DNA from: Eledone cirrhosa | Lineage: Eukaryota | DNA length: 64,000 bases | Direction: 5' to 3' | Assembly (NCBI GenBank): GCA_964016885.1 | Contig: OZ024741.1 | Coordinates: forward strand, 381,424,001-381,488,000 | The notes under the pieces: generated by a model | The model's database searches: none | What the model saw: only the letters and a program-made list of their open reading frames with translations | Told to the model about the DNA's origin: nothing | Position numbers and translations under genes: made by a program | Part shown: positions 53,006-56,761 of the stretch, piece after piece | How positions within the stretch are numbered: position 1 is the first letter of the stretch | How the letters are laid out: each line of letters begins with the position of its first letter

Positions 53006-54481
53006 AAGTATGTATACGTACATACATATATGTATACAGACGTACAGTAGTATGTATATATATATACATACATGCACACATATATATATGTACGTATGGA
53101 TTCACCAAACATTTATTATAATCCTCGGTGTGTTTGTAAACAAACATCCCGTATAAAGCCGCAGTGGCTAGCAACCATCGTTGCTCGTTTGTTCAACACT
53201 GACAAAGGAACGCTGTACTAGTTTCAAGCTTGTTAGCTATCGTCAGCAACGTATACCGTCTGCCAGATTGTTGAACGTCCGAAAGTATATACTTTCCATA
53301 TTAACGGTTGAGTAGCCCAATTTGCATATCGAGTGGGTTAATCGGCCGGGTGCACCGAAAACGATAAACGGAAAAAATGAAACGAAATTTCATTTCCCAC
53401 TCTTAGTACGGCTGTTACTTAAATTTAAGTATGTATACGTACATACATATATGTATACAGACGTACAGTAGTATGTATATATATATACATGCACACACAT
53501 ATATATATGTACGTATGGATTCACCAAACATTTATTATAATGCTCGGTGTGTTTGTAAACAAATATCCCGTATAAAGCCGCAGTGTCTAACAACCACCGT
53601 TGCTCGTTTGTTCAACACTGACAAAGGAACAAATACCCGCTTGATTAACCCACTCGATATGCAAATTGGGCTACTCAGCCGTTAATATACACAAGGAAAG
53701 TATATACTTTCGGACGTTCAACAATCTGGCAGGAAGGTATACGTTGCTGACGATAGCTAACAAGGTTGAAACTGGTACAGCGTTCCTTTGTCAGTGTTGA
53801 ACAAACGAACAACGGTGGTTGCTAGACACTGCGGCTTTATATGGGATGTTTGTTTACAAAAACACCGAGCATTATAATAAATGTTTGGTCAATCCATACG
53901 TACATATATATATATATATGTGTGCATGTATGTATATATATATATACATACTACTGTACGTCTGTATACATATATGTATGTACGTATACATACTTAAATT
54001 TAAGTAACAGCCGTACTAAGAGTGGGAAATGAAATTTCGTTTCATTTTTTCCGTTTATCGTTTTCGGTGCACCCGGCCGATTAACCCACTCGATATGCAA
54101 ATTGAGCTACTCAGTCGTTAATATGCATCAGTAAGTATATACTTTCGGACGTTCAACAATCTGGCAGACGGTATACGTTGCTGACGATAGCTAACAAGCT
54201 TGAAACTAGTACAGCGTTCCTTTGTCAGTGTTGAACAAACGAGCAACGATGGTTGCTGGACACTACGGCTTTATACGGGATGTTTGTTTACAAACACACC
54301 GAGCATTATAATAAATGGTTGGTGAATTCACACGTACATATATATATGTGTGCATGTATGTATATATATATACATACTACTGTACGTCGGTATACCTATA
54401 TGCATGTACGTATACATACTTAGATTTAAGTAACAGCCGTACTAAGCGTGGGAAATTTCATTTCATTTCCTTTTTTCCGTT
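53006..54481. mobile_element. ORF-less ~430-nt tandem repeat with one type I hammerhead per unit (retrozyme-like); ~1.5 units on - then ~2 units on +
   Basis: HHRs at 53210-53252 (-), 53741-53783 (+) and 54175-54217 (+), with a 434-nt period on +. (TA)n flanks. Confidence 0.8.
54151..54236 (+). ncRNA. Type I hammerhead ribozyme with an extended stem I
   Basis: GTTCAACA..CTGGCAGA..ACGTTG-CTGACGA-T-AGC-TAACAA-GCT-T-GAAA-CTAG-TA-CAGCGT..TTTGTCAG-TGTTGAAC. Confidence 0.78.
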
Positions 54482-54767
54482 CATATATATATATATATAT
54501 ATATATATATTTATATATATTTATATGTGTATAATATATATATATATATATATATATATATATATACATATATATATATATTGTCCGTACACAGTACAAT
54601 GTAAATGGAAACTATATAAATATACATAAAGTTTACAGAGACATGTAAACATGTATTTCTCCGTAGGACGAACATTCGTAATTAATTTTCAACATTCATT
54701 TAGGCCTCTTCAAAATATGTGTATATCAGCTAAGCTCTCAAACGGAAGTATATAAATGATGGACATA

Positions 54768-54954
54768 TAATTGTTTCTACTTTTAGCACAAGACCAGCAA
54801 TTACCCAGTGTATGACTGGTACTTTATTTTATCGACCCCGTTAGGATGAAAGGCAAAGTTAACCTCGGCTGGATTTGAACTCAGTATGGCAAGGGCCGTA
54901 ACTCAATGCGTCAAATCATGGTGTCCGACCCTCTACTGATACTGCCAATCCACC
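54768..54954 (-). mobile_element. tRNA-derived SINE, near full length
   Basis: A box, B box, core and tail on the reverse strand. Confidence 0.85.
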
Positions 54955-56120
54955 ATGCAAAACCAATATTGTAATAACTACGAAATGGACATATTAATGA
55001 ACATATTAATGCACTCATGTTTTTGTGCGCTACCTGTGCATAAGCAGTACAGGTCTTTCCAAGTCTGCATGAATGGGGATATAAATTAAAATTAAATAAT
55101 TAGACATATAAACCTGTCATATACATGTGGGTTTCTAACAATAACAGAAATATATATTCTCTGGTAGTTTATTCTTCTAGTGTTTTTCATTATACATTTA
55201 ATCTCAAACCAATCACACTGTAATAAACCAAACTAGTTTGCATATTTTACAGGCACTAGTATGCCATTCACTACATGGTTTGTTATGAAAGCCTAAATCT
55301 TTGCGAATCATTTATATCTATTTTGTAAATTCTTCACGGGAATGAAATATATGAGGTGATAAACTATATAGCTTTAAATAATGACTTTCTTTCAATGTTT
55401 TGCCAATCTTAATTGATCTGATTCAACAGTAATATTTGTTCTAAACGATAACTACTTTCTTATGATAAATGCCTATAATTTCCATTTCGTTATTTAAAAC
55501 TATATTAATTGACTAGCCGATCTTTTTGATTTTTATTAAAATACAACTGATTCTTAATGTTTTTTTTAGGAAAAGTAATCAATGTTTAAGGACTATATCT
55601 AAATATAATTATGTTTTCTCAGTAAGAAAATAACTATAGCGATATAAAAGAAATTGATATCAATTTAGTTGTTATAAAGGGGTTTAGTGTAATGTATTTC
55701 TTAGTTAATTTAACTGTGGTATCTAATAGATGGAATTATATATATTTATAATTAAAAAGAAAACAACACAACAAACAATACTGTAGAGCCAATAAATATA
55801 TATATATATATATATATATATATATATATATATATGTACACACACACACACACACACACACACACACACACACACACACACACACACACACACACAGACA
55901 CACACATATATATATATATATATATATATATATATATATGTATATATAAGTTTAACACTTGCTATAATATTAACGTTTCAGACGCTAGTAATTTCTCAGA
56001 AGATAGAATGAGAAAGAAGAAATTGAAAGATAGAGGAGAGAGAGAAGTGGAAGAAATGGCCCAAACTTTTCGAGGTGGAGAAAAAAAAAACGTGTACTCT
56101 GACAGCCGTATATATATATA

Positions 56121-56761
56121 TGGAAAAGAATGAAACGAAATTTCATTTCTCACTCTTAGTACGGCTGGTACTTAAATGTAAGTATGTTTATACGTACATA
56201 CATACATGTATACAGACTTACAGTAATATGTATATATATACATACATGCACATATATATATATATATATGTACGTATGGGTTTACACAACATTCATTATA
56301 ATGCTCGGTTTATTTGTAAACAAACAGCCCGAATTACGCTGTACAGTGTTCAGGCAACCAGCGTAACCTTTTTTTTCAACACTGACACAGGAACGATGTA
56401 CTAGTTTCAAGCTTATTAGCTATCGTCAGCATCGTATACCTTTCTGTCAGATGGTTGAACGTCTGAAAGTATATATTTTCTTTATGCATGAGCAGCCTAA
56501 TTTGCATATCGAGTGAGTTAGTCGGCCGGGCGCACCGAAAATGATAAATGGAAAAGAATGAAACGAAATTTCATTTCTCACTCTTATTACCGCTGGTACT
56601 TAAATGCTCAGCCGTTAATATGCATTAGGAAAGTATATACTTTCAGACGTTCAACCATCTGATAGAAAGGTCTACGATGCTGACGATAGCTAATAAGCTT
56701 GAAACTAGTACATCATTACTGTGTCAGTGTTGAACAAAAAGGTGACGATGGTTGCCTGAAC
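56121..56761. mobile_element. Second, diverged locus of the HHR tandem-repeat family
   Basis: ~1.1 units on - (HHR 56393-56435) and a partial unit on + (HHR 56674-56716). (TA)n flanks. Confidence 0.78.

Follow-up and report, generated by a model that had tools for sequence, protein, structure and literature searches.

We have analysed a 64,000-nucleotide stretch of the Eledone cirrhosa genome (contig OZ024741.1, positions 381,424,001 to 381,488,000 of assembly GCA_964016885.1; hereafter the window), in which units of about 430 nt with a type I hammerhead ribozyme are inserted in (TA)n. We designate these units family A, families B to F being relatives found in the same genome. Family A is real and abundant and belongs to the known class of non-LTR retrozymes (LTR, long terminal repeat). 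We consider it rather probable that this dispersed, protein-free family, whose insertions have ends of the type left by Penelope-like elements (PLEs), works as a non-autonomous retrozyme copied via a circle into (TA)n. Its added value is mechanistic, comprising PLE tail ends that obey a short-plus-long rule, read-through of the ribozyme cut site, and a candidate superfamily-wide promoter of small nuclear RNA (snRNA) type.

Family A units in the window

Unit positions are numbered from the first base 3' of the predicted cut (q1, window 53778) to q434 (54211). The original prediction described a 434-nt head-to-tail unit, an inverted block and a second, diverged locus, all of which are borne out. 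Tandem Repeats Finder detects a tandem at 53643-54481 (period 434 nt, 1.9 copies, 90% match), with hammerhead helix I starting at 53741 and again at 54175. The right arm of this two-armed insertion (53635..54483, plus strand, about 1.95 units) ends at a long 3' site (54481-54483) abutting (TA)n, and the inverted block is its left arm (53005..53630, minus strand, about 1.45 units), which carries a third hammerhead and ends at a short 3' site (53005), likewise abutting (TA)n. In total the window contains five family A hammerheads, with cores at 53246(-), 53747(+), 54181(+), 56429(-) and 56680(+). The intact core and palindromic CUAG expected of them are found in the type I hammerhead of the left arm (53210..53252, minus strand, predicted cut after 53216), but the copy at 53741..53783 (plus strand, predicted cut after 53777) has two substitutions, a broken helix II pair and CUGG in helix III. 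Its local fold has z = -1.8 as compared with -4.4 for the 54175 copy, and the modelled fold suggests that it is likely impaired. The 54175 copy (54151..54236, plus strand) has an extended, bulged helix I, its core at 54181 and its proximal fold at 54175-54217; cleavage is predicted after 54211, following GUA, the same position as proposed originally. One full cut-to-cut monomer (53778..54211, plus strand, 434 nt) is the candidate circle, and is 92% identical to a young unit elsewhere in the genome.

The second locus (56121-56748), with two more hammerheads, is 81-83% identical to the young unit. It consists of a subfamily A2 arm with a long 3' end (56121..56605, minus strand, core 56429, predicted cut after 56399) and of a short inverted arm (56607..56748, plus strand, core 56680), which stops about 45 nt past the cut site. 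The covariation of stem I noted between loci (ACGTTG/CAGCGT to ACGATG/CATCGT) is real, but a mismatch affects helix I in the 56680 copy. The fragments reported near 40 kb form a third locus, with a minus-strand 3' fragment bearing the long end (40044..40188) and an inverted plus-strand 3' fragment extending to the short end (40478..40565); neither has a family A ribozyme, and they are split by an unrelated PLE 3' piece. That piece (window 40220-40470) derives from a coding Neptune-like PLE, has its own hammerhead at 40270, and matches the region following the open reading frame (ORF) in loci L354 and L355. As anticipated, all window loci are bounded by (TA)n. They are old, since the 53747 copy is damaged twice and the arms are only 81-94% identical to the young unit. 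The absence of a real ORF is also confirmed: on either strand of a 1,300-nt tandem stretch the longest ATG ORF has 51-52 codons. Family A units measure 426-434 nt and have a GC content of 0.36-0.38.

Abundance and genomic layout

The exact 33-nt ribozyme string has 12,131 matches in the genome (2,995,841,428 bases) against 0 for a reversed-pattern control, and the folds of the circular monomers have z = -6.5 to -8.5, being 25-27 kcal/mol (20 for L017) below the antisense; given these counts and z values, family A is not a product of chance. Forty evenly placed 10-kb stretches (399,800 bases) contain three family A loci, which extrapolates to about 22,000 (Poisson range roughly 4,600-66,000). 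Family A sequence is also present in 8,485, 1, 119 and 5 contigs of four sequencing runs of unrecorded kind from three organisms, numbers that are uninformative on expression.

The layout was evaluated in 60 loci taken in chromosome order from the matches to the 33-nt string (the position-ordered set). There is one ribozyme per strand in 44 of them and both orientations occur in 31, while a full cut-to-cut monomer, that is two consecutive ribozymes, is found in 11, with at most seven ribozymes per arm. Family A insertions are mostly of 1-1.5 units, lie in (TA)n and are spread over many chromosomes. On these counts family A is primarily a dispersed element and only secondarily a tandem repeat, so that the tandem arrangement originally described is real but represents the lesser part of the loci. 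One young insertion (L233, G000:C1:9969200-9972400) has about ten near-identical units across both arms.

Insertion ends and Penelope-like marks

We have mapped the arms in 53 best-match loci (duplicates of the window and of each other removed) and in the position-ordered set, and observed that 157 of 195 arms stop at two fixed 3' sites 59 nt apart, 71 at the short site (around q219) and 86 at the long site (around q279), the remaining 38 ending elsewhere. A simple repeat, mostly (TA)n, lies directly 3' of 148 arms, the 5' ends are scattered over the unit, and both 3' sites lie after predicted hairpins. In the right arm of the window a long TA-rich hairpin is predicted immediately 5' of the short end (approximate bounds 53897..53990, plus strand), and the 59-nt tail between both fixed ends occurs as an internal copy containing a hairpin and a T6 run (53997..54055, plus strand) and as a terminal copy (54423-54481, plus strand). 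Setting aside 22 of 61 head-to-head pairs, which have an unclassifiable end, short and long ends are combined in 37 of the other 39 (36 of 38 after removing one duplicated pair, p = 2.7e-9).

PLEs are known for 5' truncation, inverted copies and a tail of 30-40 bp usually present at one end (bioRxiv 10.1101/2021.04.23.441226), and in a PLE of the anole the tail lies between two internal start sites of the reverse transcriptase (RT), both target strands being cut and extended (PMC11167929). Fixed 3' ends with variable 5' ends, together with the short-plus-long rule, are marks of reverse transcription, and the 59-nt segment is the PLE tail mark on a unit without an ORF. The earlier proposal of a non-autonomous, PLE-linked hammerhead retroelement is supported more strongly than before, since (TA)n targets, tail ends at fixed positions, truncated 5' sides and arms inverted head to head are all marks of PLE insertion. 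In the arm maps only unit sequence bounded by simple repeats is seen; they reveal no organisation of LTR, primer-binding site and polypurine tract, although no dedicated search for the latter two was made. The insertion ends give unusually direct clues to the mode of movement. In family A a retrozyme without an ORF itself bears the insertion marks of PLEs, and the strict short-plus-long pairing constrains models of PLE integration.

These ends also bear on whether family A might be a satellite spread by DNA-level duplication and fold-back, its ribozyme being a fossil. The periodic variants of long arrays (see below) and one segmentally duplicated insertion (L256) speak in its favour, but the dispersal over many chromosomes, the fixed 3' and variable 5' ends and the short-plus-long rule do not, and as the main route this process is largely refuted; we regard it as extremely improbable.

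Search for a coding partner

The PLEs of this genome have open RT-GIY-YIG frames of 784-1,096 codons and zinc-finger linkers of Neptune type, the clade being assigned from the motif by comparison with bioRxiv 10.1101/2021.04.23.441226. In a PLE protein search all labels obtained were mollusc-associated. PLE protein matches lie near 5 of 60 and 1 of 28 unit loci, none of them contiguous with the 5' end of the unit, and represent separate insertions in (TA)n. No coding element was found joined to the unit in the Neptune-like family of the window, in the 30 best GIY-YIG loci or in 11 long-ORF loci, nor in the related families B and D. Since the partner search covered a sample of loci, the mobilising enzyme is one that we infer.

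One may then ask whether the unit is the pseudo-LTR of a coding PLE, its copies being ordinary 5'-truncated PLE insertions. Every insertion mark described above is a PLE mark, the partner evidence comes from a sample of loci, and one coding family carries its own hammerhead after the ORF (L354, L355). However, upstream of the ribozyme the family A copies run into the previous unit and not into an ORF, the nearby protein matches are not contiguous with the unit, and the units of families A and B align along their entire circumference, leaving no place for an ORF. A unit serving as the terminal repeat of a coding PLE, the outcome that the original prediction had set against itself, was seen at none of the sampled loci, and we consider this alternative very unlikely. 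A separate observation concerns a young PLE family (L348, G000:C5:17086000-17095999; L349, C6:55894000-55903000), in which a 784-aa RT-GIY-YIG frame is preceded by a separate 455-aa frame and where our scan found no sense hammerhead.

Ribozyme fold and selection on structure

In the fold predicted for family A, helix I comprises 6 bp, carries a UAU bulge and is prolonged distally by a long extension, while helix II has 4 bp and helix III 2 bp within the palindrome ACUAGU. This fold agrees with the canonical metazoan type I form, in which a G10.1-C11.1 pair is conserved (PMC4209133), except for U-U at 10.1-11.1. This position varies among families, being U-U in A, A-A in B and C, A-U in D and G-C in E, and in the portions of the retrozyme literature compared G10.1-C11.1 is a ribozyme detail and not a class criterion. 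A U-U closing pair fixed across 12,000 copies is a natural ribozyme variant of interest. The core is intact in 45 of 53 family A copies and ACUAGU in 50 of 53, most of these copies having been picked by similarity in the ribozyme region. Lower divergence of the core (0.0095 versus 0.018-0.029) was not used as evidence, the loci having been selected on the core motif. An Rfam scan of the window returned no hammerhead among the 150 of 163 matches listed, only low-complexity microRNA matches. In the predicted monomer circle helices I and II are formed and the core is outside its active pairing.

Family B is colinear with A round the whole unit at 64.5% identity. Across the 13 distinct rows compared from A and B, pairing is kept in 95.6% of cells and six pairs have two-sided changes, whereas slid controls pair at 26-39%; this covariation reflects few events, not 13. 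The pattern indicates that the ribozyme fold is kept by covariation between homologues at about 65% identity, and that the RNA fold is under selection. Outside family A a palindromic helix III hexamer is found in three families, with ACAUGU in B, AUGCAU in D and ACUAGU in E, while the hexamers of C and F are not palindromes.

A candidate snRNA-type promoter

An octamer, ATGCAAAT, with a TATA-like box downstream of it, is retained in families A to E and in the single F copy, the octamer lying some 80-100 nt 5' of the core. The octamer-to-hammerhead pattern has 35,570 genome matches against 8 for the control, a figure that counts copies of few families and not independent events; in family C an octamer-like 33-mer is repeated three times. 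The candidate promoter of the window (54095..54141, plus strand) comprises the octamer (54095-54102), TCAG (54111-54114) and TATATA (54136-54141), and would direct a start near 54168.

Among host U6 genes with native upstream DNA, all three independent types have TATGC(A/T)AAT at -77 to -79 together with a TATA box around -30, while two further U6 copies do not show this pattern; the octamer-to-TATA spacing is about 41-45 nt in the families versus about 47-49 in host U6. Common to nine host U1/U2 upstream regions are the motif TCA(G/A)T, located at -56 to -58, and a box resembling TATATA, located at -28 to -33. A TCA with U1-like spacing to the box is also found in A1, A2, B, C and D, 17 nt 3' of the octamer. 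A two-block U1/U2 matrix, constructed post hoc, gives p values of 0.007-0.04 for A, 1e-4 for C, 0.06 for D and 0.12 for E. Both the U6 and the U1/U2 landmarks predict a start 12-15 nt before the core; no pile-up of 5' ends was seen there, and 142 of 153 ribozymes keep unit sequence upstream of it (with rough anchors). Because of this retention and of the T6 run inside the A1 unit, RNA polymerase (Pol) II or leaky Pol III is favoured. Altogether, octamer and TATA-like box likely constitute a promoter of snRNA type belonging to the unit itself. As a precedent, the internal snRNA promoter of newt satellite 2 is used by Pol II (Coats et al. 1994, as cited in PMC2220036) and compact promoters made of octamer, proximal sequence element (PSE) and TATA box are able to serve both polymerases (PMC7949045).

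Regarding the host genes themselves, the snRNA genes form large tandem clusters (U6, G000:C19:31780605-31840331; U2, C3:307349256-307453739; U1, C2:180973544-180995099), and U1/U2 have a TATA-like box near -30, whereas the Pol II snRNA promoters of PMC7949045 are TATA-less. One U6 copy (L294, G000:C10:48072680-48072786) lies between pieces of another small (TA)n-inserted repeat, an embedding which suggests a U6 chimera formed by template switching.

The template and the weighing of alternatives

Loci selected only on the sequence 3' of the cut retain the ribozyme upstream at 47 of 50 post-cut sites, the exceptions being two decayed ribozymes and one copy whose start lies at an inversion 3-4 nt upstream. 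A genome-wide pattern for 5' ends abutting TA has 752 matches, and the first 100 of these represent 35 distinct loci, with the end within 2 nt of the cut in 3 and 4-26 nt upstream in 32. Neither set shows a pile-up of 5' ends at the cut site. Given read-through without pile-up, the template is a re-ligated circle or uncut RNA, and from the positions of the TA-abutting ends cut linear monomers are not the main template. Rare variants are shared within an insertion at 29% (tandem) and 24% (inverted) versus 1.5% between loci, a comparison that includes L017 and L169, which look partly duplicated; common polymorphic columns agree in 276 of 319 within-insertion comparisons versus 12,591 of 23,623. 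This fits one source per insertion and many sources overall, as would suit a circle or a homogeneous uncut multimer.

Several observations weigh against a PLE-mobilised circular retrozyme. No homologue of the unit was found as a terminal repeat in 70 PLE loci from few families, and no RT/GIY-YIG ORF is contiguous with the unit in 28 + 60 unit loci, a sample and not the genome. Helix II is closed in family A by U-U in place of the conserved G10.1-C11.1, and in Xenopus only one of nine predicted retrozyme dimers cleaved (bioRxiv 10.64898/2026.07.22.740005). Ribozyme mutants of the anole PLE inserted normally in vitro, uncut RNA being the main substrate (PMC11167929). As for the promoter, the host U1/U2 matrix gives family A 7.8-12.6 versus 16.6-29.2 for true promoters, an earlier ungapped matrix failed in A, B, D and E and picked the predicted site only in C and F, and the T6 run of A1 would stop Pol III. 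Finally, L252 alternates as ABAB and family E arrays carry variants of period 2 to period 4, which points to DNA-level expansion or multimeric templates. For this reason long arrays were rejected as proof of rolling reverse transcription. That part of the original prediction is retained only insofar as cut-site read-through and shared variants are compatible with it, since the long arrays bear signs of DNA-level duplication.

Part of this evidence would be accommodated if the same PLE-mobilised element were copied from linear RNA that reads through tandem loci and stays uncut, the ribozyme being weak or serving another step, circles rare or absent, and multimers arising from tandem sources and later DNA duplication. 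Read-through and shared variants are explained equally well, and the uncut substrate of the anole enzyme in vitro (PMC11167929), the U-U closing pair, the DNA-level periodicity of L252, L313 and L317 and the likely duplications in L017 and L169 all suit such a template. However, a linear template would lose the upstream part of the first unit in each round, yet the sequence before the predicted start is kept by 142 of 153 ribozymes (as above, with rough anchors), while only 11 of 60 loci are full dimers. Moreover, families with no more than 65% identity have conserved the core, the helices and the palindrome, and the three retrozymes tested by northern blot gave circles (PMC7229834). We thus hold linear copying to be possible, though rather unlikely, and favour copying via a circle.

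For the circular retrozyme we propose the following sequence of events. Transcripts would begin 12-15 nt 5' of the ribozyme core, and some would have to continue into the following unit. As expected from the class, two ribozymes would pair through the 6-nt palindromic helix III, retained in families A, B, D and E, and cut as a dimer. By analogy with the retrozymes of coral, mussel and axolotl, a host ligase would close the cut-to-cut monomer, promoter included. Copying would then begin at the fixed pair of internal sites, which are separated by 59 nt, as a rule with one site used on each target strand, and would proceed backwards past the cut site over varying distances, both copies joining head to head; the end pattern is observed, and a Penelope-like RT/endonuclease would be responsible. 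Some arrays would later grow at the DNA level, as the periodic variants show.

Related families and other features of the window

Families B, C and D, subfamily A3 and one F copy share the octamer, the TATA-like box and the hammerhead (L132-L160, L097, L193-L220, L323-L326, L315, L319), and inversions and tail-like ends are observed in B, C and D. In family E, whose octamer-hammerhead unit measures 466-469 nt, helix II closes with the canonical G-C. Its units form near-identical arrays, one of 30 and one of 14, which are flanked by short and long ends (G000:C1:5738332-5751968, L313 and L314; C1:14044541-14050800, L317), and family E is probably the best candidate for an active ribozyme. We tentatively suggest a superfamily of at least five self-contained ribozyme circles, with more than 35,000 units, which captured snRNA-gene promoters within the circle and are inserted through priming at two sites by a Penelope-like enzyme, a proposal that is plausible but falls short of probable. 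If true, these would be the circular-RNA counterpart of short interspersed elements (SINEs), with genomic ends that record the mechanism, and may supply abundant circular RNA in this animal.

The window also contains a family C copy with repeated octamers and a decayed hammerhead core (6451..6773, minus strand), and hammerhead-like cores of unrelated repeats at 431(-)/540(+), 34906(+), 43351(-) and 56980(-)/57118(+), two of them as inverted pairs; many small ribozyme elements are present in the genome. Long retrotransposon ORFs (8468-18868, 29799-33706, 36049-39581, 46743-49616) comprise non-LTR RT frames, the longest of 1,141 aa, together with a GIY-YIG frame of Neptune-like type, a fragment resembling Penelope and a long interspersed element (LINE) with endonuclease and RT.

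Comparison with known systems

Non-LTR retrozymes were defined by Cervera and de la Pena (2020, PMC7229834), who described circles in coral, mussel and axolotl and proposed mobilisation by PLEs. Li, Clavereau and Pollet (bioRxiv 10.64898/2026.07.22.740005) argue from phylogeny and co-occurrence in 35 mostly vertebrate genomes that retrozymes are non-autonomous PLE derivatives, leaving local amplification as an option. We found no description of an octopus or cephalopod hammerhead, retrozyme or Penelope element in a search that excluded most subscription papers and repeat databases, and none of a retrozyme with octamer or PSE among the best 10 of 31 matches. Family A bears on how animal retrozymes are transcribed and move, since it locates a promoter candidate; donor RNA, start site, the two RT start sites and the target can all be specified from its copies.

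Like other metazoan non-LTR retrozymes, family A consists of ORF-less units of a few hundred nt, with GC below 45% (36-38% here) and a type I hammerhead in each; it forms dimers to multimers, has a highly paired circle fold and shares its genome with PLEs. It is slightly longer than the tested retrozyme RNAs of 170-400 nt, and differs in consisting mostly of dispersed, two-armed insertions of 1-1.5 units and in the U-U at 10.1-11.1. PLE tail ends and an internal promoter are absent from the available text of the retrozyme descriptions compared, the supplements of which could list the family or its ends.

With canonical endonuclease-positive (EN+) PLEs (Poseidon of the anole, PMC11167929; bioRxiv 10.1101/2021.04.23.441226) family A shares two fixed 3' ends, a tail at one end, 5' truncation, inverted arms, AT-rich or (TA)n targets, and a hammerhead upstream of the RT start sites. 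In contrast, it has no ORF, its tail is of 59 nt and not of 30-40 bp, and it has full helices I and II where canonical PLEs have the minimal PLE ribozyme. Newt satellite 2 (PMC2220036) likewise is a tandem hammerhead repeat with a short helix III and an internal snRNA-type promoter, although it belongs to another lineage and has another sequence, and the promoter of family A is a predicted one. Also in the SINE-like hammerhead repeats of Schistosoma (PMC6765202) the promoter lies within the unit and one unit drives the next; that promoter is reported to be of Pol III type, whereas family A has an octamer, TCAG and a TATA-like box resembling those of host snRNA genes.

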